Shown here: piece by piece, positions 1,625-62,362 of the stretch
Layout: each line of letters opens with the position of its first letter
Position numbering within the stretch: position 1 is the stretch's first letter
IMG/VR virus record: IMGVR_UViG_3300024262_000013
Length of the DNA stretch: 64,000 nucleotides
Strand: one strand, 5' to 3'
DNA from: a virus
Lineage: Duplodnaviria > Caudoviricetes
Notes under the pieces: generated by a model
The model's input: the letters and a program-made list of their open reading frames with translations, nothing else
Database searches by the model: none
What the model was told of the DNA's origin: nothing
Translations under genes and position numbers: made by a program

Positions 1625-3397
1625 ATGGGACTATCAAGAGAGCAGGCTTTATTGGAATACGCGAAGTGTATAAAAGATACCCCTTACGCTTTAAAAACCT
1701 ATTTACAAACTTACGATAACACACAGTCACAGTACGTACCTTTAGAATTATTTTCAGACCAAAAAACCCTTATCAACGACTATGATAATTATGAGGAAAA
1801 TATAGCCTTAAAGTATAGACAGGCAGGTGTTTCAACGGTCACTGCTGCGTGGGCATCTAAAAAAGTAGTTACCGCATCTAAGAAAAAACCCGAAAAAGTA
1901 CTGATTATTGCCAATAAATTAGATACTTCCCAAGAATTCGCTAATAAAGTTAGAAGTTTTATTGACCAATGGCCAACATGGTTTGGTATCTCATATTCTA
2001 ATGAGAAAAATTCACAAAGACATTTTAAGTTGTCAAATGGTTGTGAGGTTAAAGCAGTTGCAACTTCAAAAGATGCCCTTCGTGGGTACACACCAACCAT
2101 ACTTATTTTTGATGAGGCGGCTTTTATCGACGCTGATGATGACTTTTGGTCGGCGTGTATGGCATCTTTGTCTACAGGAGGTAAAGTAATAGTTATATCA
2201 ACACCTAACGGATTTGACCCGATATATTATACAATTTACGACCAAGCCTTAAGAGGTATGAACGATTTTAAAATTACAGAAATGTACTGGTATCGTGACC
2301 CTCGATACTCCAAAGACTTACAACTTATTAAATGTAATGATATTATACACTATATGTTAAATCGTGATGATTATGATGACAATAAAATAATAATTAGATA
2401 CGGAGATATTGACCCTCGTGAAAGGGATTACGAGGATATTAAATTAAAATTAGCAAATGGATACAAAGTTTATTCTCCATGGTTCGAAGGTATGGCTAAA
2501 AAACTTAAATTTGATAGAAGAAAAATCTCACAGGAATTAGAATGTAATTTCTTAGGTTCAGGAGATAACGTGATTCCAAGTAGTACTATTGAGATTATGA
2601 AACAAAACTACATACAGGAACCAAAAAACAAATTTATAGGTGGTTCATTGTGGCAGTGGAAAGAACCAATAGCTAATCATAAATATATAATGGGTATTGA
2701 CGTATCTCGTGGAGATAGTGAAGATTATACCACATTTACCATTATTGATTTTGATACCAGGGAACAAGTTCTTGAATATTTAGGTAAAGTTCCTCCTGAT
2801 GTGGTTGCTGAGATAGCCTTTAAATGGGCAACTATGTATTCTGCATTTGTAGTGATTGATATTACAGGAGGTATGGGAGTGTCAACGTCAAGAAAATTAC
2901 AAGAATTAGGTTATAAAAATTTATATGTTGAAGGTATTAATGCCGCAGATAAATGGAAATATAATGTGAAGTCCATGGAGAAGATTCCGGGGTTAAATTT
3001 CAATAATAAACGTGTACAGATTGTTGCTTCATTTGAGGAGGCATTAAGACATAATTTTGAAATTCGTTCATCAAGACTTTTAAATGAGTTAAATACTTTT
3101 GTCTACGTAAACGGTAGACCTGACCACCAAAAGGGTCAACACGATGATTTAATTATGGCTATAGCTATGGCAATCTATGTTGGTGAGAACTCATTTACAC
3201 AATTAGAAAAAGTTACCAACCAAACTAAAGCCATGATGGAGAGTTGGTTAGTTAATGAGACACCAGTTAAAAACACTTCTAACGATTTTCATCCGAGTTT
3301 ATCGGCATTACCGGGAGGGATACACCACAACATAAACAGTGGACAGGCAACTAAACAAGACTATCAAGATAATTCTTGGTTATTTGGAAAATTTTAA
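1625..3397 (+). CDS. terL: terminase large subunit (T4 gp17-like)
   Basis: ATPase motifs LKYRQAGVST, ILIFDEAAF and VISTPNG; RNase H-like nuclease motifs MGIDVSRGDSED and HDDLIMA; adjacent to the portal gene. Confidence 0.95.
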   Translation: MGLSREQALLEYAKCIKDTPYALKTYLQTYDNTQSQYVPLELFSDQKTLINDYDNYEENIALKYRQAGVSTVTAAWASKKVVTASKKKPEKVLIIANKLDTSQEFANKVRSFIDQWPTWFGISYSNEKNSQRHFKLSNGCEVKAVATSKDALRGYTPTILIFDEAAFIDADDDFWSACMASLSTGGKVIVISTPNGFDPIYYTIYDQALRGMNDFKITEMYWYRDPRYSKDLQLIKCNDIIHYMLNRDDYDDNKIIIRYGDIDPRERDYEDIKLKLANGYKVYSPWFEGMAKKLKFDRRKISQELECNFLGSGDNVIPSSTIEIMKQNYIQEPKNKFIGGSLWQWKEPIANHKYIMGIDVSRGDSEDYTTFTIIDFDTREQVLEYLGKVPPDVVAEIAFKWATMYSAFVVIDITGGMGVSTSRKLQELGYKNLYVEGINAADKWKYNVKSMEKIPGLNFNNKRVQIVASFEEALRHNFEIRSSRLLNELNTFVYVNGRPDHQKGQHDDLIMAIAMAIYVGENSFTQLEKVTNQTKAMMESWLVNETPVKNTSNDFHPSLSALPGGIHHNINSGQATKQDYQDNSWLFGKF

Positions 3398-3425
3398 ATG
3401 TTTAGTTTAATTCAAATAATGTTAC

Positions 3426-3432
3426 TATTTAT
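3426..3432 (+). promoter_or_regulatory. TATTTAT putative late-promoter motif (portal)
   Basis: Lies 12 nt before the ATG at 3445; the same motif recurs before about 20 virion-associated genes. Confidence 0.6.
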
Positions 3433-3444
3433 GTAAAAAGAAGT

Positions 3445-5307
3445 ATGGCAGAAAATTATACTATATGGCAAAGACTTACTAAGGTGTTTGGTCCTGACTC
3501 AACGTTAGACCAACAAGCCCCGGTATTTCAGTTTGATAAAAAAGAACTTTTAAAGACTCCTGATAAGAAAGAGTATGAGAGAGAGAAACTTCAAGCCCAA
3601 CAAACTCTTTATCTTGGTCAACAATGGCAAAAAATTGAGAATAACTTATACACTCAAGCGGTATATTACGAACCAACTAGATTAGCTTCATTTTATGATT
3701 ATGAGAGTATGGAATATACTCCTGAAATATCTGCAGCCTTAGATATCTACGGTGAAGAATCAACAACCGTGAACGAAGATGGGCATATACTACAGATATA
3801 TTCTGAAAGTAAGAGGATTAAATCAATTCTTGGTGACTTATTTAACAATAGACTCGACATTAGTACTAACCTACCTATGTGGACAAGAAATACTTGTAAA
3901 TACGGCGATAACTTTGTTTACCTTAAGTTAGACCCTGAAAAGGGAGTTATGGGTGTACAACAACTACCTAACATTGAAATCACTCGTCAAGAACGAGGAA
4001 TGAAAATGAAACCAGAACGTAACAGTGTCGATAGTGAGAATGATGCTCTTAAATTTTTATGGCAAAATAAAGATATGGTACTGAATACTTGGGAAATGGC
4101 TCACTTTAGATTATTAGGTGATGACCGTAAATTACCTTATGGTACCTCTATGTTAGAAAAGGCCAGGAGAATATGGAAACAACTAATATTATCTGAAGAC
4201 GCTATGTTAGTTTACCGAACATCAAGGGCTCCCGAAAGAAGAGTCTTTAAAGTTTTTGTTGGTAATATGGATGACAAAGACGTTGAACCGTATGTACAAA
4301 GAGTGGCAAATAAATTTAAAAGAGACCAAGTAGTCGATTCTACAAATGGTAATGTTGATTTAAGGTATAATCAAATGGCGGTTGACCAAGATTATTTTAT
4401 ACCTGTTCGTGATGCTAACGCTCCGAATCCAATAGATACTTTACCAGGTGCACAAAATTTATCTGAAATCGCGGATATTGAGTATATTCAGAAAAAATTA
4501 TTAACCGCTCTTAGAGTACCTAAGGCATTCTTAGGGTTTGAAGAAGTAGTCGGTGACGGTAAAAATTTAGCATTACAAGATATTAGATTCGCTCGTACAA
4601 TCAATAGAATTCAAAAATCTATGATTCAAGAATTAAATAAGATAGCAATCATTCATTTATACTTATTAGGTTTTGAAGATGAATTAAATAACTTTACATT
4701 AGGTTTAACTAACCCATCAACACAAGCTGATTTACTTAAGGTGGAGCAATGGCAACAAAAAGTAGCTCTTTATCGTGACGCGGTATCTGACCCAGGAAAT
4801 GGGATTCAACCAGTATCTTCTTCATGGGCTAAGAAACATATTTTAGGTTTTTCAGATGAAGAAATTAAACTTGATTTACAACAACAAAGAATTGAAAAGG
4901 CGGTTGGAGCCGAATTAGAGAAAACTTCTGAAACAATTAGTAAGACAGGTATATTTGCAAATATCGATAAGTTATACGGCGACAAACCTGGTGAAGGTGG
5001 AGCACCTGAAGGTGAAGTAACTGAACCGTCAGACACAGGATTTGGTTCCGATGGAGGTGGTAGTGATTTTGGAGGTGACTTAGGTAGCGACTTAGGTAGC
5101 GACTTAGGTAGTGACTTAGGTGATACCGGTGGAGATACCGGTGGAGATACCGGTGGAGAGGTAACACCTGAAGGTATTAATGAAAAAGACTTAAATATGA
5201 TATTAGAAAATGATATGGTAACGGGTATTTCTGAAATAGATTTATCAAAAGGTAGAGTATCTTTAGGTAAAATCGAAGATGAACTAAGAACATTACTAGA
5301 TAGTTAA
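3445..5307 (+). CDS. gp20: portal protein (T4 gp20-like)
   Basis: SMLEKARRIWKQLILSEDAMLVYRTSRAPERRVFKVFVGNM and EDYF-like QDYFIPVR match the gp20 core; gene order is terL-portal. Confidence 0.95.
   Translation: MAENYTIWQRLTKVFGPDSTLDQQAPVFQFDKKELLKTPDKKEYEREKLQAQQTLYLGQQWQKIENNLYTQAVYYEPTRLASFYDYESMEYTPEISAALDIYGEESTTVNEDGHILQIYSESKRIKSILGDLFNNRLDISTNLPMWTRNTCKYGDNFVYLKLDPEKGVMGVQQLPNIEITRQERGMKMKPERNSVDSENDALKFLWQNKDMVLNTWEMAHFRLLGDDRKLPYGTSMLEKARRIWKQLILSEDAMLVYRTSRAPERRVFKVFVGNMDDKDVEPYVQRVANKFKRDQVVDSTNGNVDLRYNQMAVDQDYFIPVRDANAPNPIDTLPGAQNLSEIADIEYIQKKLLTALRVPKAFLGFEEVVGDGKNLALQDIRFARTINRIQKSMIQELNKIAIIHLYLLGFEDELNNFTLGLTNPSTQADLLKVEQWQQKVALYRDAVSDPGNGIQPVSSSWAKKHILGFSDEEIKLDLQQQRIEKAVGAELEKTSETISKTGIFANIDKLYGDKPGEGGAPEGEVTEPSDTGFGSDGGGSDFGGDLGSDLGSDLGSDLGDTGGDTGGDTGGEVTPEGINEKDLNMILENDMVTGISEIDLSKGRVSLGKIEDELRTLLDS
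5077..5157 (+). repeat. two adjacent 12-nt tandem repeats in the portal C-terminus
   Basis: GACTTAGGTAGY about 3.75 copies (5077-5121), then GATACCGGTGGA 3 copies (5122-5157), encoding (DLGS)n(DTGG)n. Confidence 0.9.
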
Positions 5308-54507: not shown

Positions 54508-57500
54508 ATGGCAACATCTAACAAAGTATTTGTATCTCCGGGTGTTTATACATCAGAAAGAGATTTAAGTTTTGTAGCACAAAGTGTGGGAGTCACAACT
54601 CTTGGGTTAGTAGGTGAAACAATTTCGGGACCAGCGTTCGAGCCGATTTTCATAACTAATTACGATGAGTTCCAATCCTATTTTGGTGGTACAAATCCAA
54701 CTAAATTCGTAAATACTCAGATACCTAAGTACGAGGCAGCTTACATAGCGAAATCATATCTACAACAATCAAATCAATTGTTTGTTACTAGAGTACTTGG
54801 TTTATCAGGGTACGACGCGGGGCCTTCATGGTCAATAACAACTATCGGTAACTTAGATAGCTCAGGTACAACGGCAACAGGCGTTTTAGGACCTTTCTCT
54901 ATTTCATTTACAGGAGTTTCAGGAACATCCACAAGTGTTGGAGTAAATTACTCAGCATTACCTATCAGTATTACGGATGTGATAACTAATCCATATACAA
55001 CATATACGGGTGGAGAGTCCTCTATTATTCGTGATATGGATAGATATTTATATTCGGAGATTGTAAATAACACGACTTCAGGAGAAACATCTTATTTTTG
55101 GGGAGCGGTAAGTGCCTCCACATTTAATAGTACTACAGGCGATACGGTTAATCAAACAGGGGCTCTTGGGTCAGTTAATACTAATGTATTTAATGTAGAA
55201 GATATTCTTTTTGAATCTTGTGATTTAACCGCATCGGTTAATGACCCATGGTATTACGCATTATTTACTGAAACTGCTAACGTGTATAACGGTACAGGTT
55301 TTGGTATGGGTGTAACATCAATGACGAATGTAGGTCTTAACTTCCAAGGTACGGCTAAAGTTTATGTAACAAGCTATTCGGGTACACCATATAGCGGTTA
55401 CCACGATGTGGTAGTTGCAACTTTACGTTCAAGAGGTATAGATAACTATACAAATGATGACGGACCAGTTTATGAGGTATCAGGGGTAACTGACGTTCTT
55501 TTAGATTGTACAGGAGCGTATTCTGGTATATCCACTAATCCTTTTTCGACTTTTGCAGTCTCTGCAACAACTACCGATGGAGATAACTTTATATTCCAAA
55601 CATCATTTAACTTATCTAGTTCAAACTACCTTTCAAAGGTATTTGGTAAATCAAATTTTGCGAAACCGAAATCAGAGGTACCATTATTTGTTGAGGAAGA
55701 ATATTATAACTTATTAAATACGGGGTATCGTTTAGGTAAAGTCCGTGGATTAAGTTGTGACCTAGTTGATTTACCAAGTGCTAGACAAGATTTAGCAACC
55801 AATACAAGTATCGGATGGTACTTAGAAAGATACCAAACACCTGAAACACCTTATTTCGTTTCTGAATTAAGAGGTAATCAAGTTTACAATATGTTTAAGG
55901 TATTAACCATATCTGATGGTAACACCGCAAATAGAGAGATAAAAGTCTCTATTATGAACATTTCATTTAATAATGGGACATTCGATGTAGTTGTACGTGA
56001 TTTCTTCGATACCGATGCTAACCCAGTAGTTTTAGAGAAATTTACTAACTGTACTATGGATATGAATCAAAATAGTTTTGTAGCTAAAAGAATTGGTACA
56101 TCTAATGGGGAGTTTGAGTTAAGGTCAAGATTTATAATGTTAGAGATGAATGAGGACGCACCTTATGACTCACTACCTTGTGGTTTCCGTGGATACCAAA
56201 CTAGACAATACTCAGGAGTTAATTCACCATTCTTAGAATATAAAACAAAATACGACACACCAGGTGAAGTTATTTGGAACCCACCATTTGGTGCGGCGAC
56301 AGGTACTGACAATGAAACGAGAAGTTCAGGTGATAGAGTAAGAAGAACTTTCTTAGGTGTTTCAAACACCGTAGGGATTGATTCAGATTTCTTACAGTAT
56401 AAAGGAAAACAAAACCCTACAAATTTAGGGACCGCAACTGATTCACAACCATGGGGTTACCTTACTAAAGGTTACCATATGGATTCAGGAGCAACGGTTA
56501 TTATGATTTCTTCTAATTATATTACGTCAGGTGAAACGGCTTTTGAAGTTGGGGACGCGAGTTTCGATTCAGAACCAACTGAAGGTAGTCCATATTTTAG
56601 ATTAAATGCACGTAAGTTCACAGTAGTTCCATCAGGAGGTTTCGATGGATGGGATATTTATAGACAATATAGAACTAACGGTGACAGATATCAATTAGGA
56701 GCAGCAGGATTTAGAAAAGGGGCGGCACCATCGATAAGTTATCCAACCGCAACAGGATGGGGAGCGTTTAAACAAATTGTAGGACCAGACCAATTAACTT
56801 GGGCTAACACAGATTATTACGCTTACTTATGGGGTCAATATACATTTAATAATCCTGAATCAGTTAACATTAATGTGTTTACTACACCAGGTATTGATTA
56901 TGTAAATAACTCAAACTTAGTTGAGTCAGCAATTGATATGATTGAACAGGATAGAGCAGATTCAATTTATCTCTGTACTACACCTGACTATCAAATGTTT
57001 ACACCTTCATTAGGTAGTTTTGATACTGACTTTATTTACCCTGAAGAAGCGGTAGATAATTTAGTAGACACAGGAATAGACTCTAACTACACAGCAACTT
57101 ATTATCCATGGATACTTACGAGAGACACGGTTAATAATACACAAATATATCTTCCACCAACAGGTGAGGTTGCTAGGAACTTAGCATTAACTGATAATAT
57201 AGCTTTCCCATGGTTCGCATCTGCGGGTTACACAAGAGGTTTAGTTAACTCAGTTAAAGCACGTAAGAAGTTAACACAAGAAGATAGAGATGTACTATAC
57301 CAAGGTAGATTAAACCCAATTGCAACCTTCTCCGATGTTGGTACTGTAATATGGGGTAACAAAACTTTACAAGTTAAAGAATCTGCACTTGATAGAATAA
57401 ACGTTAGAAGATTACTACTACAAGCACGTAAATTAATTTCGGCTGTGGCGGTAAGATTATTGTTCGAACAAAATGACGAACAAGTAAGACAAGAATTCTT

Positions 57501-57702
57501 AGACTCAGTTAACCCTATCTTAGATAGTATTAGGAGAGACAGAGGTTTAATTGACTTTAGAGTTACAGTTTCAGGTACACCTGAAGATTTAGACTCTAAC
57601 ACGTTAACAGGTAAAATTTACTTGAAACCAACAAGAGCACTTGAATTTATTGATATTGAATTTTTGATTACTCCTACAGGAGCATCTTTTGAAGATATTT
57701 AA
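54508..57702 (+). CDS. gp18: contractile tail sheath protein (T4 gp18-like, 1064 aa)
   Basis: N-terminal VSPGVYTSERDLS; C-terminal YYPW, PWFASAGYTRG, LYQGRLNPI, WGNKTL and RINVRRL motifs. Confidence 0.96.
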   Translation: MATSNKVFVSPGVYTSERDLSFVAQSVGVTTLGLVGETISGPAFEPIFITNYDEFQSYFGGTNPTKFVNTQIPKYEAAYIAKSYLQQSNQLFVTRVLGLSGYDAGPSWSITTIGNLDSSGTTATGVLGPFSISFTGVSGTSTSVGVNYSALPISITDVITNPYTTYTGGESSIIRDMDRYLYSEIVNNTTSGETSYFWGAVSASTFNSTTGDTVNQTGALGSVNTNVFNVEDILFESCDLTASVNDPWYYALFTETANVYNGTGFGMGVTSMTNVGLNFQGTAKVYVTSYSGTPYSGYHDVVVATLRSRGIDNYTNDDGPVYEVSGVTDVLLDCTGAYSGISTNPFSTFAVSATTTDGDNFIFQTSFNLSSSNYLSKVFGKSNFAKPKSEVPLFVEEEYYNLLNTGYRLGKVRGLSCDLVDLPSARQDLATNTSIGWYLERYQTPETPYFVSELRGNQVYNMFKVLTISDGNTANREIKVSIMNISFNNGTFDVVVRDFFDTDANPVVLEKFTNCTMDMNQNSFVAKRIGTSNGEFELRSRFIMLEMNEDAPYDSLPCGFRGYQTRQYSGVNSPFLEYKTKYDTPGEVIWNPPFGAATGTDNETRSSGDRVRRTFLGVSNTVGIDSDFLQYKGKQNPTNLGTATDSQPWGYLTKGYHMDSGATVIMISSNYITSGETAFEVGDASFDSEPTEGSPYFRLNARKFTVVPSGGFDGWDIYRQYRTNGDRYQLGAAGFRKGAAPSISYPTATGWGAFKQIVGPDQLTWANTDYYAYLWGQYTFNNPESVNINVFTTPGIDYVNNSNLVESAIDMIEQDRADSIYLCTTPDYQMFTPSLGSFDTDFIYPEEAVDNLVDTGIDSNYTATYYPWILTRDTVNNTQIYLPPTGEVARNLALTDNIAFPWFASAGYTRGLVNSVKARKKLTQEDRDVLYQGRLNPIATFSDVGTVIWGNKTLQVKESALDRINVRRLLLQARKLISAVAVRLLFEQNDEQVRQEFLDSVNPILDSIRRDRGLIDFRVTVSGTPEDLDSNTLTGKIYLKPTRALEFIDIEFLITPTGASFEDI

Positions 57703-57778: not shown

Positions 57779-57931
57779 ATGGAATTTAAGAAAAAAATAC
57801 TTAACGAAGCTTTAGACGTAAAGTCTAACGGTAGTAAGTCTTTCTCAGAAAAACCTCAGAATATTGTTATTTCTGAAACTCAACTAGAAAGATTAATAGA
57901 AAAAATTAATAAGAAACCAAATAGAAAATGA
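57779..57931 (+). CDS. 50-aa protein (not in the ORF track)
   Basis: Manual translation gives MEFKKKILNEALDVKSNGSKSFSEKPQNIVISETQLERLIEKINKKPNRK; ATGA overlap with the next gene. Confidence 0.7.
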   Translation: MEFKKKILNEALDVKSNGSKSFSEKPQNIVISETQLERLIEKINKKPNRK

Positions 57932-58779
57932 GTTTAAAGGGAGTCATAAGGGAATTTTTTAGCGAAAGGTTACTACGTGAAGGGTTTGACCCTGAAGGTA
58001 ATCCAGACTTAAAATATTATGCGTTCGACTGGGACGATAACATCGCTACGATGCCGACCCAAATTTTAGTATTAACTGACAATGATGAAGAGGTAGGTAT
58101 GTCTACTGAAGATTTCGCAGATTATCGAAGTATGATAGGTAAAGAGCCTTTTGAATACAAAGGTAAGATGATTGTGGGATACTCTAAGGACCCTTATAAG
58201 AATTTCGGTATACAAGGTGATAACGCATTTATAATTGATTCTATGTTAGCTAAACCAGGTCCATCATGGGGTGATTTTGTTGAAGCGATAAATGGGGGTT
58301 CCATTTTTTCAATAATCACCGCTAGAGGTCACACACCTTCAGTTTTACGTGAAGCTATTTATAATATGATAGTTACTGACCATAATGGTATTAGTAAGGA
58401 ATCTTTAATTGACAACCTTAAAAAATATCGTAATATTACGGGTGACGACAGAGAAAATTACTTCGGTATGATTAACGACTATTTGGACCTTAATAGGTAT
58501 TACCCCGTAACTTACGGTGAAGGTGATGCTGCTGACCCTGAAGAAGGGAAGATTAAAGCTTTACGTGAATTTATCTCTTATGTTAGAGATATAAGTAAGA
58601 AAATTGGTAAAGAAGCCTTTCTTAAAAATGATATAAAAAATAATTTTGTACCAATGATTGGGTTTTCTGATGATGACCCAGGCAATGTAGAAAAAATTAA
58701 AGCCTTTTTAAATAAAGAATATAAAGATAAACCAGTTAAAACATATTTAACTAAAGGAGGAAATAAAAAAGAAGTATAA
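57928..58779 (+). CDS. HAD-superfamily phosphatase with an N-terminal leader
   Basis: AFDWDDNI (motif I), ITARG (motif II) and FSDDD (motif IV); leader MSLKGVIREFFSERLLREG. Confidence 0.75.
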   Translation: MSLKGVIREFFSERLLREGFDPEGNPDLKYYAFDWDDNIATMPTQILVLTDNDEEVGMSTEDFADYRSMIGKEPFEYKGKMIVGYSKDPYKNFGIQGDNAFIIDSMLAKPGPSWGDFVEAINGGSIFSIITARGHTPSVLREAIYNMIVTDHNGISKESLIDNLKKYRNITGDDRENYFGMINDYLDLNRYYPVTYGEGDAADPEEGKIKALREFISYVRDISKKIGKEAFLKNDIKNNFVPMIGFSDDDPGNVEKIKAFLNKEYKDKPVKTYLTKGGNKKEV

Positions 58780-58901: not shown

Positions 58902-59390
58902 ATGGCAGACTTATTAATGAAAATGCCCGTTCCTTATGAACCAAAAAGAAAGAATAGATTTATCTTATCTTTTCCATCTTCATTGGGGATTAATTCTTGG
59001 TATGTTGAGTCTACATCAAGACCTAACATCCAAATCGGGTCCACAGAAATTCCTTTTCTAAACACATCCACTTACGTGGCAGGTAGATTTACCTGGAACA
59101 CAATAAACGTTACTTTCCGTGACCCAATCGGTCCATCAGCCTCACAAGCTTTAATGGAGTGGGTTAGACTACACTCAGAGTCCGTTACAGGCCGTATGGG
59201 ATACGCAGCAGGTTATAAGAAAGATTTAGACTTAGAGATGTTAGACCCAACAGGGGTAGCAGTTGAGAAATGGATATTACAAGGGACATTCTTAACTGAC
59301 GTTAATTTCGACAGTTTAGGTTATAGTGACGATGCGTTAGCGACAATTACAGCAACATTACGTCCTGATAGATGTATTTTGGTGTACTAA
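58902..59390 (+). CDS. gp19: tail tube protein (T4 gp19-like)
   Basis: 162 aa; AGRFTWNTINVTFRD, LEMLDP and WILQGTFLTDVNF pattern; TATTTATA at 58857. Confidence 0.88.
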   Translation: MADLLMKMPVPYEPKRKNRFILSFPSSLGINSWYVESTSRPNIQIGSTEIPFLNTSTYVAGRFTWNTINVTFRDPIGPSASQALMEWVRLHSESVTGRMGYAAGYKKDLDLEMLDPTGVAVEKWILQGTFLTDVNFDSLGYSDDALATITATLRPDRCILVY

Positions 59391-59483: not shown

Positions 59484-60233
59484 ATGGACCAAGGAAAACA
59501 ATACGGAGAAATGAATATGGACTTACCACATGATGTGGTACCATTACCATCACAAGGTTTATTCTACACAAGTAAGAAAAAATCTCTTAAGGTGGGTTAT
59601 TTAACTGCTCAAGATGAAAATATATTATTATCAAACGCAGGGAATAACAATTTAGTAATGACATTACTGAAGAATAAAATTTATGAGCCGGATTTTAACG
59701 TAAATGAATTACTTGACGGAGATGCGGAAGCTATCTTAATCTTTTTAAGAAATACCGCTTTTGGCTCAGATTATAATTTTAAATTAAAAGACCCTAAGAC
59801 AGGGAAAGATTTTGAGACGACAATCGCTTTAGATGAATTAAATATTATAAAAGCTAAAATAACACCAAATGAAAAAGGGTTATTTGAATTTAACCTACCT
59901 AAATCGGGTGTTAATGTAAAATGTCGACTTTTAAATGTTCAGGACACTAATGAATTATCTGCGTTACCCGACTCATACCCTAATGGAGTAACTGTACCAA
60001 TTGTTACTAAAAGATTAGAAAAACACATTATGTCTATCGATGGTGATGAAAACAGAGAAAAAATATCAACCTTTATAAGTACGCTACCTATTATGGATTC
60101 AAAGTTTATTAGGAACACAATGTCAGATTGTGAACCTAAATTAGACCTTAATAGAACTACTACAGCCCCGTCAGGAGAAAAAGTGAATATGCGTATCACT
60201 TTTGGGGCGGAGTTTTTTCGTCCTTTCTTCTAG
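59484..60233 (+). CDS. baseplate hub/tail assembly chaperone (T4 gp26-like)
   Basis: VPLPSQG, YLTAQDENILL, LIFLRNTAFG and C-terminal EFF; lies between tube and tape measure. Confidence 0.75.
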   Translation: MDQGKQYGEMNMDLPHDVVPLPSQGLFYTSKKKSLKVGYLTAQDENILLSNAGNNNLVMTLLKNKIYEPDFNVNELLDGDAEAILIFLRNTAFGSDYNFKLKDPKTGKDFETTIALDELNIIKAKITPNEKGLFEFNLPKSGVNVKCRLLNVQDTNELSALPDSYPNGVTVPIVTKRLEKHIMSIDGDENREKISTFISTLPIMDSKFIRNTMSDCEPKLDLNRTTTAPSGEKVNMRITFGAEFFRPFF

Positions 60234-60408
60234 TTATAGAAAAGTTCTGCTCGATGAGTTCTACTATCTAAGTAAACATGTAAATATGTCTTACTCGGAC
60301 CTACTTATTATGCCGACATTCGAAAGAAAATTCTTTATTAATAAGTTGTCAACCGAATTCCAAGAAAAAAATGAACAAATAGAGAAACAAAGGCAAAAAT
60401 CTCGTTAA
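60202..60408 (+). CDS. T4 gp51-like short chaperone ORF; no good start, possibly reached by frameshift
   Basis: MSYSDLLIMPTFERKFFI resembles the gp51-type pattern; overlaps gp26 in the +1 frame across TTTTTTC. Confidence 0.65.
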   Translation: MGRSFFVLSSSYRKVLLDEFYYLSKHVNMSYSDLLIMPTFERKFFINKLSTEFQEKNEQIEKQRQKSR

Positions 60409-60433: not shown

Positions 60434-62362
60434 ATGTTTGAAGGTGATGGAATAGCTGGAGAGGTTAAATCGATAGAATCGAGTATTAAGTTAGCGGACA
60501 TCTCGCTTACAGCATTTGCGAGAAAATTAAAAGACAGTATCATCGATGTTGGTTCGTTAATTGAAAGGGCTGCTGCGATTCAAACTAAATCTGCCAATAC
60601 GGTTAGAGAAAGTTTAGGACAAACTAGAGCGGTAAGTAATGAGGTTCAAAAAGTTATGGCTGAGTCAGCTAAAAGTACTATGCAAATTGGTATTAGTGCT
60701 GAAAAAAATATTGAATTATTTGCCGCGATAAATAATTCAATGATGAGAAATACGTTTCTCACGGATTCACAAATAACAGGATTTCAAGCGTTAGGTATGA
60801 CCGCTAATATGACGGCAACCGAGTTAGCTACTATGGCTACCTCATTCGATACCTTAGGTTATACCACAGACCAAACACTTGCGATGATGGGAGAAATGAC
60901 CGACCAAGCGAGAGCTTATGGTTTAAACGTTTCCACATTTATGGGTGAGGTTAACAAGAATTTAAAGTTAATGGTCACATATAACTTTAAAGACGGTGTC
61001 GTAGGTCTTTCTAAAATGGTTGCCCAAGCACAAGCCTTAAGAATTGATATGGGTAAGACGGTTAGTTTTGCTGATGAACTAATGTCACCTGAAAAGGCAA
61101 TTGAAACCGCAGCTGGATTCCAAATGTTAGGGGGGTCAATTAGTAAATTAGGAGACCCATTCTCATTATTAAATATGGCTCAAACAGATATGGCGGGACT
61201 ACAAGATAGTCTTGTTGATATGGCAGCGGGGGCAGTTTCATTTAATAAGGAGTCAGGGGAGTTTGATATTCCTGTTACTGAGATGTACCGTCTTAGAGAA
61301 GCCGCAAAATTAGCTGGAATGTCATATCAAGAGTTTGCGGAGATGGGTATGAAAGCGGCTCAAAAGACTGAAAAGTTAAAAATATTAGATAATTTTAATA
61401 CTGTACCTGAAGAGCAAAAAGAACTAATCGCTAATATGGGTAAAATTGGGGCTAATGGTAATTTAGAGATAACTATGCCAGACGGTACGGTTAAAAAAAT
61501 TGGCGAAGGGTTTAATCAATTAATTGCTAGTGATTACACTCAATTAGAAAATATGTTAGATGTTAATAACATGTCAGAAATTGATGTCGCTAAGGAATCT
61601 ATGGGTTATCTTAACCAAATTGAGGCAGCTCAGAAGACTTTAATTAATTTAACAACGTTAAACTTAGTAAAAGGTGGTGGTTTTGATATTTTTGCTGAGA
61701 AAGCTACAGAGGCTCAAAAAATGCTAACTGAAGAGTTTTTAAAACGAGAAGATGAGATAAAGGTTCCTGACAATATTATTAGTGGGATTGGTCAAATACA
61801 AACACAATTAAGTATGGATAGGGAAACAGCTGCCGCGATTACTGAGGCGGTTGTTAATGGTATTAATGAATCCGCTAAAGCCACTAATGAGATTATTCAA
61901 CAACTAATTGATAAAGCTGATGGTGCCGCACTTTTATTATTAATGAAGCAAGGTTGGGGGGAAGTTATTTTAGCTATCGAAAACTTACCTGAGAGTATTT
62001 CGGGAATATTTAAAGAAACTGGAAGTAGAAAAAACCATAGTTTGAATGGTGAAACTCAGATAATCGACCACGAAACTGGGGGTAGAGGTAATCCATCAAT
62101 TAATCACGAAACCGGGGGTAGAGATAATCCATCTATATCTAGTCTTAATTACAGTACTGGTAGTATAGGTGAACCAACAACTATGATGGCGTCTAATTCT
62201 AATGTAAATGTGAGCGGTCAAGTTAACCTCACACTTGAAGGGATACCAACCAACTCAGTATTAGATAAAGATGCATTAGCTAACTTACTAATTAATAATC
62301 CAACCGCAATGGCTACGATTAATTCTCAAATAAATAATACGTTAGGAACTTATAACTCCTAA
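60434..62362 (+). CDS. tape-measure-like protein (642 aa)
   Basis: Ala/Met/Gln-rich helical composition; position after tube and chaperones; TATTTATA at 60413. Confidence 0.7.
   Translation: MFEGDGIAGEVKSIESSIKLADISLTAFARKLKDSIIDVGSLIERAAAIQTKSANTVRESLGQTRAVSNEVQKVMAESAKSTMQIGISAEKNIELFAAINNSMMRNTFLTDSQITGFQALGMTANMTATELATMATSFDTLGYTTDQTLAMMGEMTDQARAYGLNVSTFMGEVNKNLKLMVTYNFKDGVVGLSKMVAQAQALRIDMGKTVSFADELMSPEKAIETAAGFQMLGGSISKLGDPFSLLNMAQTDMAGLQDSLVDMAAGAVSFNKESGEFDIPVTEMYRLREAAKLAGMSYQEFAEMGMKAAQKTEKLKILDNFNTVPEEQKELIANMGKIGANGNLEITMPDGTVKKIGEGFNQLIASDYTQLENMLDVNNMSEIDVAKESMGYLNQIEAAQKTLINLTTLNLVKGGGFDIFAEKATEAQKMLTEEFLKREDEIKVPDNIISGIGQIQTQLSMDRETAAAITEAVVNGINESAKATNEIIQQLIDKADGAALLLLMKQGWGEVILAIENLPESISGIFKETGSRKNHSLNGETQIIDHETGGRGNPSINHETGGRDNPSISSLNYSTGSIGEPTTMMASNSNVNVSGQVNLTLEGIPTNSVLDKDALANLLINNPTAMATINSQINNTLGTYNS
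62069..62136 (+). repeat. 36-nt tandem duplication in the tape-measure C-terminus
   Basis: Encodes HETGGRGNPSIN / HETGGRDNPSI. Confidence 0.85.

Follow-up and report, generated by a model that had tools for sequence, protein, structure and literature searches.

The 64,000-nucleotide (nt) stretch of viral DNA analyzed here (IMG/VR record IMGVR_UViG_3300024262_000013; Duplodnaviria, Caudoviricetes), referred to as the window throughout, contains a tail or hub assembly chaperone gene related to genes 26 and 51 of phage T4, the 3' end of which overlaps a second open reading frame (ORF) in the +1 frame (Table 1). The upstream, frame-0 ORF ends GGG GCG GAG TTT TTT CGT CCT TTC TTC TAG. Its overlap with the next ORF, which extends from 60202 to 60408, holds one start-like codon, TTG at 60202, and the first ATG of the +1 frame, at 60286, would leave a product of 40 amino acids (aa). 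When C60219 is skipped, so that TTTC at 60216-60219 is read as one step, the two ORFs are joined into a protein of 307 aa with the junction GAEFFVLSSSYR, as compared to 249 aa without a shift. All of these coordinates, reading frames, start-like codons and product lengths are as described in a first-pass annotation of the window, which had proposed a programmed +1 frameshift at this position. According to our own estimate from base composition, a +1 frame that stays open for 68 codons would arise by chance with a probability of about 0.005 in DNA of 32% GC. From the comparative sequence evidence presented below we conclude that this gene of a giant marine phage very probably gives rise to a short and a long tail chaperone of the gp26/gp51 family by a +1 ribosomal slip at UUUUUUC.

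Table 1. Features of the chaperone locus and its neighborhood in the window, and +1-frame extensions in cultured phages (last five rows, positions in the locus named)
Feature	Position	Strand	Remarks
Short form, tail/hub assembly chaperone, T4 gp26 equivalent	59484..60233	+	frame-0 ORF, 249 aa; PF12322 and phrog_150
Proposed shift site UUU UUU C	60213..60219	+	peptidyl-tRNA-Phe would re-pair 1 base forward, C60219 skipped
Frame-0 A-site codon CGT (Arg)	60219..60221	+	CGN throughout the clade
+1-frame extension, T-like domain	60220..60408	+	62 aa and stop; with residues 1-245 gives the predicted 307-aa long form (P0001), T4 gp51 equivalent
Frame-0 stop codon TAG	60231..60233	+	4 codons 3' of the shift site
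Predicted GC-rich bulged RNA hairpin	60165..60208	+	ends 4 nt 5' of the U run
Tail tube gene, T4 gp19-like	58902..59390	+	phrog_4542 tail tube, E 5e-29; weak PF06841 match
Probable tape measure protein, 642 aa	60434..62362	+	position and language-model look-alikes only
Sheath	54508-57702		followed by two small ORFs, tube gene, chaperone gene and 642-aa ORF
Bacillus phage SP-15 (L188)	3117-3440		+1 extension
Listeria phage LIS04 (L189)	3138-3446		+1 extension
Bacillus phage HSE3 (L086)	3716-3940		+1 extension
Flavobacterium phage immuto (L003)	3665-3970		+1 extension
Microcystis phage Mel-JY01 (L002)	3686-3976		+1 extension

Conservation of the frame offset and of the shift region

A scan of IMG/VR with the fused protein P0001 yielded 80 contigs with 54-96% protein identity, 77 of which hold both parts of the gene, and in every one of these 77 related contigs the downstream part is in the +1 frame and attached at the same junction. 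When all contigs scored for the downstream frame were taken together, representing three phage clades, the +1 offset was found in 151 of 151. Junctions in the clade of the window read GAR TTT TTT CGN CCT TTC TTC followed by a stop codon, and they differ from one another only in the third base of CGN, in one change from CCT to CAT and in which stop codon is used. That third base (T, C, A or G) is silent in frame 0 and specifies V, A, D or G in the +1 frame, and the frame-0 stops of the relatives (TAG, TAA or TGA) fall within S, N, D or E codons of that frame. None of the 52 distinct window-clade sequences departs from the codons TTT TTT, and of the 103 distinct junctions from the three clades 100 have TTT-Y at the homologous Phe codon. 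The +1 direction and the slip run TTTTTTC claimed in the first-pass annotation are thus supported by the constancy of the offset and by the near-universal TTT-Y. In addition, the +1-frame residues D257, E258, Y260, Y261, L262, P277, E280, R281, F284, K287 and L288 show little or no replacement, and their codons vary synonymously, which indicates purifying selection on the +1-frame peptide.

The same arrangement was found beyond the window clade. A homologue from Flavobacterium phage immuto, used as a query, matched at least 599 stretches in IMG/VR, 80 of which were kept for scoring, and in every locus scored among these 80 the downstream domain is read in the +1 frame. Their junctions read TTT CTT TGG CCT GAC, TTT CTA TGG or TTT TTT TGG, with a T7 run in part of the loci, and the +1 peptide reads FFGLTPEYR. 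In this Flavobacterium-phage clade the alignment of junctions, a check proposed together with the original claim, shows conservation of the +1 frame from the FF onward, upstream of any start codon. Among cultured phages, a T-like domain in the +1 frame is found in SP-15, LIS04, HSE3, GXN1, Mel-JY01 and immuto, with the junctions TTC TTT CGT CCC in Bacillus phage HSE3 and Streptococcus phage GXN1, GAA TTT TTT CAC in Bacillus phage SP-15 (analogous peptide SEFFTPDSTTK) and GAG TTT TTT AGT in Listeria phage LIS04. In the records of these cultured phages the extension is either unannotated or represented by a tiny hypothetical ORF from a late ATG, and none of them contains a ribosomal-slippage join. 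A small clade (L089, L092, L093) has TTA TTT/TTC AAT CCC AGT in place of TTT-Y and may shift at CCC_A. Moreover, in the uncultured huge phage LR756511 (L087, 595 kb) the T-like domain (about 3640-3926) lies in the -1 frame; it follows GGT TTT TTC, which forms a canonical U_UUU_UUC heptamer at the same FF. The position of this -1 variant favors recoding in general over independent initiation, and, as judged from the aligned junctions, the chaperone family appears to recode at a conserved Phe-Phe in either direction.

The sequence of the window was also present in further DNA runs, and a contig from a metatranscriptome library covering 60077-60243 has no indel at the U run, these run data consisting of contigs only, in which rare transcript variants can be hidden. 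In public metagenome runs the contig depth peaks over a block of about 40-70 nt within 60177-60250 (about 45 versus about 7 in run X12) with loose ends on both sides, which shows that relatives diverged elsewhere have almost the same nucleotide sequence over the shift-site block.

Constraint at the RNA level is concentrated in the same region. In the 52 distinct window-clade sequences 86 alignment columns have an invariant degenerate residue, and a single codon is used throughout in only 8 of them, all located within 60165-60228 (GCC CCG TCA GGA, GGG, TTT TTT and TCT); this codon-level conservation points to an element in addition to the slippery tetranucleotide. The candidate is a hairpin immediately upstream of the shift site, the outer stem of which is formed by GCCCCG (60165-60170) with UGGGGC (60203-60208) and the inner stem by 60180-60186 with 60196-60202, separated by an invariant internal loop at 60171-60179 (UCAGGAGAA). 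GCCCCG can pair with YGGGGY in 100% of the sequences, the only changes being from G-C to G-U. The inner stem varies between sub-clades and is still paired (AAAGUGA/UCACUUU, GUGAC/GUCAC, GUAAC/GUUAC, GUUGACAC/GUGUCAGC), with minimum free energy (MFE) z-scores of -1.0 to -3.8 in five diverged members. By analogy with engineered upstream refolding hairpins, which stimulate +1 shifting on 70S ribosomes (PMC6321510), a role of this hairpin as a stimulator of the +1 shift in the window clade is plausible. It is also possible that the invariant loop AGGAGA pairs with the downstream UCUUCU in a pseudoknot-like manner; both sides are invariant, so this pairing gives no covariation signal.

Two other candidate elements were considered and rejected. 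A Shine-Dalgarno (SD)-like stimulator, for which GGAG at 60209-60212 and AGGAG at 60173-60177 were the candidates, was judged unlikely in a phage without SD use, as an SD-like core was found upstream of only 2 of the 47 long ORFs in the window. The leaders are instead A-rich, and both properties fit a host without SD-based initiation, such as a member of the Bacteroidota. A hairpin formed by GGGGCGGA and UUCGUCCU, which would span the slip site and is contained in the MFE structure of the single sequence, was rejected since columns 63 and 75 vary without compensation.

Relation to T4 gp26 and gp51 and gene context

The 249-aa ORF matches the T4_baseplate family PF12322 with 34 bits (cut-off 24.5) and phrog_150, a profile of 282 positions, with an E value of 2e-12. 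T4 gp26 (208 aa) and gp51 (249 aa), two paralogues with 20% identity (BLASTP E 2e-6), both belong to PF12322 and phrog_150 as well. The portion of phrog_150 covered by the short form (positions 3-233) is similar to that covered by gp26 (14-235), and the portion covered by the fusion (3-273) is similar to that covered by gp51 (13-280). T4 gp26 ends KEFFELL, three residues past the same FF, and gp51 carries on with a tail of about 45 residues. When a profile of the fused protein, built from 54 sequences of three clades, was aligned by hhalign with a gp51 profile of eight homologues, the alignment (E 8e-5) was colinear through the junction to residue 242 of the 249 residues of gp51 and paired MP..ERK.. 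with M.P.ER.., while the short-form profile aligned with gp51 only up to residue 186 (E 6e-4). Profiles were required for this comparison, as pairwise BLASTP of the fusion with T4 gp26 or gp51 gave nothing significant. In profile comparison, therefore, the short form resembles gp26 and the whole fusion resembles gp51. The two ORFs had initially been described as a gp26-like and a gp51-like chaperone; the short product retains its assignment as the gp26 equivalent, but the downstream ORF corresponds only to the C-terminal tail of gp51. The paired CxxC motifs of the T4 proteins are absent from the window protein, which reads KDPKTGKD and TAPSGEK at the places of CPxCG and CxxCG in relatives; a CxxC motif is kept in L001, L085 and L086, which indicates that it is not universal in the family. 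The nearest record, G001 (52% complete), contains one phrog_150 gene, and a second, gp51-like gene may be present elsewhere.

A search of 1.84 billion representative proteins with the T-domain profile (A5) gave 966 clusters. Among the best 150 of these, 148 are ORF calls of 50-134 aa with inconsistent starts, one is an ORF of 159 aa with the T domain at its N-terminus, and one, P0090 (331 aa; L187, Logan contig, 193-1188), is an in-frame fusion. P0090 reads CSNCGHESKNKFPIDSNFFGLPDNYRENLMDEIF, with NFFGLPDNYR in one frame, and thereby has exactly the junction predicted for the +1 product. Its DNA at the junction is AAT TTC TTC GGA CTC, which is non-slippery, so that P0090 is not a 1-base deletion of a slippery site. 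The gene following P0090 is on the opposite strand, a context like that of T4 gp51 and unlike the order of tube, chaperone and tape measure genes. The T domain (60214-60405) also shows a weak match to DUF6760 (PF20546; 2 of 14 members, best E 0.019), a possible link to small uncharacterized bacterial proteins, possibly of tail-like particle loci. Complex prediction for the tube protein with the T domain gave a score of 0.00, which speaks neither for nor against binding.

The short form was modeled by AlphaFold2 from an alignment of 31 sequences with a mean predicted local distance difference test score of 86.7. In an exhaustive structural comparison with 48,161 PDB representatives, residues 130-219 of the model matched the HK97 tail assembly chaperone 2ob9 (Z 5.7; root-mean-square deviation 3.1, 76 residues aligned) and YqbN 3klu (Z 5.6) at ranks 2 and 3, and phage p2 ORF12 (3d8l) scored lower (Z 2.4), all of these Z values being middling at best. 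A Foldseek search of the model against the PDB gave no match with E < 0.001 (2ob9: probability 0.72, TMt 0.50, E 0.6). The enrichment of tail chaperones among the structural matches of this model would agree with the gene position and with T4 genetics. The top structural match overall is that of residues 9-102 to 3fgx, an uncharacterized Geobacillus protein (Z 6.5), and the chaperone may be built of two chaperone-like halves.

At related loci of both large clades the tube gene likewise lies directly 5' of the chaperone gene, and in relatives an annotated tape measure gene is found at the position of ORF 60434-62362. Language-model look-alikes of this ORF are mostly members of the tape-measure families PF10145, PF20155 and PF06791, with scores of 0.90-0.92, so that by position and language-model features it probably encodes the tape measure protein. 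The two overlapping ORFs of the window are thus situated as G/GT chaperone genes are, between a tube gene and a tape-measure-like ORF. In the 642-aa ORF a short peptide is repeated in tandem close to the C-terminal third (about 62030-62140; HETGGRGNPSIN / HETGGRDNPSIS), and a 283-aa ORF between sheath and tube (57928-58779) has no Pfam or PHROG match. No cultured phage was matched in a megablast search with the locus.

Alternative explanations

Several observations weigh against recoding in a G/GT-type locus. ORF 60434-62362 has no match in Pfam, NCBIfam or PHROGs, nor by tblastn or BLASTP with annotated tape-measure proteins. As a consequence, the original placement of the locus before the tape measure gene holds with respect to the tube gene and the tape-measure position, but not with respect to a family match. 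The T-domain profile alone did not align significantly with gp51, either as a single sequence or as the profile of eight sequences (E 0.13 and 0.085), one of the two alignments being located at the expected place. Support for the hairpin comes mainly from invariance and from G-C to G-U changes, the shuffle statistics are modest, and an equivalent frozen element upstream of the site was sought in the Flavobacterium-phage clade and none was seen. CGT is moderately rare and not very rare (6.5 per 1000 codons), and the window shows no shortage of in-frame TTT_CGN, which occurs 5 times in 16,800 codons against an expectation of about 6. After in-frame TTT TTT the next base is a purine in 19 cases and a pyrimidine in only 3. 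From these counts the tetranucleotide alone is probably a weak site. Finally, an NTG codon (ATG, CTG, GTG or TTG) is aligned with 60247-60249, five codons past the frame-0 stop, in 25 of 27 diverse clade members and could allow some translation of a T-only peptide of 53 aa.

This last observation bears on the only serious rival to a fusion, namely that two separate proteins are made and that the T-like ORF is initiated, or reinitiated, at an NTG just past the frame-0 stop or at ATG 60286. The domain is indeed routinely called by gene callers as a stand-alone ORF of the size range given above, and the missing ribosome-binding site is uninformative in a phage without SD use. However, at 60247 the window itself has CTG and two relatives have TTA, and the NTG pattern would also follow from an ancestral ATG that drifted by single steps at a hydrophobic position. 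No ATG is present near the start of the domain in 74 of the 103 junctions and no ATG, GTG or TTG in 21, the position of the first ATG is spread over about 80 codons, TTG 60202 is missing in several relatives, and the Met at 60286 is only 52% conserved. A conserved independent start, which had been named beforehand as grounds for abandoning the frameshift, was therefore looked for in the full set of junctions and not found; as far as the alignment reaches, the downstream frame is without a conserved start codon. Further points against separate translation are the beginning of +1 conservation at the FF in the Flavobacterium-phage clade, 5' of any start codon, the slip codons frozen in nucleotides, the predicted junction in P0090, the colinearity of the fusion with gp51 and the location of the -1 variant of LR756511 at the same FF, and we consider it unlikely. 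The remaining alternatives retain the long form and differ in its origin. A ribosomal shift of -2 on U6 (UUU back to UUU) would lead to the identical frame with one extra Phe (EFFFVLSS), as in U UUU UUC the P-site and E-site tRNA-Phe could both re-pair two bases back, and the predicted tryptic junction peptides of the two products would differ (ITFGAEFFVLSSSYR after +1, ITFGAEFFFVLSSSYR after -2). Yet relatives with TTT CTT TGG, TTT CTA TGG or TTC TTT CGT can re-pair at +1 and not at -2, and the natural in-frame protein P0090 has FFGL rather than FFFGL, which makes this route very improbable. Transcriptional slippage, by which RNA polymerase would drop one U or add two at T6, could draw on the invariance of T6 in the window clade and on T7 in part of the Flavobacterium-phage clade. 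Efficient slippage of bacterial polymerases, however, is known from runs of about 8-9 or more, which exceed the six U of the window; TTTCTT, TTTCTA or TTCTTT is all that many relatives have at the site, and the sole RNA-library contig across the site is without an indel, although contigs hide rare variants; slippage of this kind is, in our assessment, a little less probable still than the -2 shift. The relatives with these interrupted runs rule out a general role for either process. Lastly, homopolymer runs are prone to indel errors, and the break, which falls in such a run, could in principle be a sequencing or assembly error or a recent pseudogenizing indel in a single gene for 307 aa. Since the same offset and junction recur, with T6, in 77 of 77 independent metagenome contigs and in further DNA runs, and both frames are under selection in the overlap, error is excluded and this last explanation has practically no weight.

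Proposed mechanism and comparison with known systems

For the +1 slip favored here the following course of events is proposed. Most ribosomes would translate frame 0 up to TAG 60231 and release the 249-aa short form. A minority would shift to +1 at GAG UUU UUU CGU, where the peptidyl-tRNA-Phe, held on UUU by a G:U wobble, would move to the overlapping UUU or UUC before the CGU codon in the A-site is occupied. Decoding would then resume at GUC, with C60219 skipped, leading to the 307-aa long form (GAEFF-VLSSSYRK) with its 62-aa T-like tail, and the hairpin would probably refold behind the ribosome and thereby favor the forward slip. If the two forms act like lambda gpG/gpGT, the tape measure protein would be coated by the N-terminal body common to both, the tail of the rare long form would recruit another tail component, and neither form would remain in the virion. 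Both the slip of tRNA-Phe from UUU to UUC and the G/GT analogy had been put forward in the first-pass annotation, and the comparative evidence supports them.

With lambda gpG/gpGT the locus shares the position of its overlapping frames between the genes for tube and tape measure, a slippery sequence close to the 3' end of the upstream frame, the proposed combination of an abundant short form with a rare, C-terminally extended form and possibly, to judge from middling structural matches, a fold like that of the HK97 and YqbN chaperones in part of the N-terminal body. In contrast to lambda, which uses -1 on X_XXY_YYZ, the window would use +1 on UUU_UUU_C, the protein belongs to PF12322 and, with about 250 aa, is about twice the size of gpG, and the RNA element lies upstream instead of downstream. 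A conserved frameshift in the tail assembly chaperone genes of long-tailed phages was reportedly described by Xu, Hendrix and Duda in 2004 (reviewed in PMC5009743). Precedents for a two-gene short/long pair, as in T4, and for a +1 shift are provided by the two-gene G/GT system of Bacillus thuringiensis phage 0305phi8-36 (PMC2147016) and by the probable +1 chaperone frameshift of the haloarchaeal myovirus HSTV-2 (cited in PMC5009743), respectively; they concern other protein families, however, and neither is PF12322.

The shift site itself resembles known +1 sites. UUU_Y is especially prone to +1 shifting in bacteria, for example in Yersinia YopN-TyeA, and UCC_UUU_CGU is the +1 site of influenza A PA-X and of amalgaviruses (PMC5009743). 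Common to these sites and the window are the move of tRNA-Phe from UUU to UUC and CGU or CGN in the A-site, and UUU CGU C is literally present at 60216-60222. The window differs in the second UUU in the E-site, in the conserved upstream hairpin and in the bacterial, probably Bacteroidota, translation system. Similar to prfB, the gene for release factor 2, a +1 slip of the P-site tRNA would be helped by a duplex just behind the ribosome. However, the A-site codon of the window is CGN and not a stop, which follows only four codons later, an SD-like stimulator is not to be expected in view of the scarcity of SD-like cores, and the duplex behind the ribosome would be formed by a hairpin of the mRNA, like that of the engineered constructs, whose geometry, with the hairpin 1-4 nt from the E-site codon, is the same (PMC6321510). 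The window clade would contribute a candidate natural hairpin stimulator to a large family of conserved +1 shift sites in hosts without SD use, for which one clade alone gave more than 600 matching stretches in IMG/VR. To our knowledge, upstream refolding hairpins that stimulate +1 frameshifting have been shown only in engineered constructs.

A full-text literature search, which covered titles other than those available by subscription only, found no paper on recoding in the gp26/gp51 family or equating gp26/gp51 with G/GT, and the locus is apparently a deeply conserved +1 recoding site, a new and unpublished variant on the G/GT theme. For annotation this would mean that the long form is missing, or replaced by a spurious tiny ORF, in SP-15, HSE3, immuto and Mel-JY01; SP-15, which grows on Bacillus subtilis, offers a tractable experimental system.

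The comparison with T4 itself extends to the tail motif Y-x-L-x-S-I-x-x-M-x-P-x-ER of gp51, which is also found in the long form. In contrast to the window, T4 has two separate, divergently transcribed paralogous genes, located away from the tube gene and without recoding. T4 gp26 and gp51 are hub assembly chaperones; in T4, the only member for which this is known, assembly of the hub and tape measure depends on them and neither is found in the virion, and their roles have been unclear for decades (PMC3004832). Recoding of one gene beside the tube and tape-measure genes would provide a concrete candidate role for them, that of a short and a long tape-measure chaperone. Taking these lines together, it appears moderately probable that T4-type contractile tails have in the gp26/gp51 family their tape-measure chaperone system of the G/GT type, which had seemed to be missing, that the family was ancestrally one gene recoded at Phe-Phe (UUU UUU), from which lineages slip by +1 or -1 and which T4 and a few others hard-wired as two genes, and that the hairpin at 60165-60208 is a natural upstream refolding-hairpin stimulator. 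The +1 lineages would then comprise the marine clade of the window, the Flavobacterium-phage clade, SP-15, LIS04 and Mel-JY01, and the -1 lineages would be other giant phages. G-T frameshifting has been described as conserved among long-tailed phages 'except T4' (Atkins et al. review, PMC5009743), and a hard-wired pair of genes derived from a recoded one would explain why T4 is cited as the exception.

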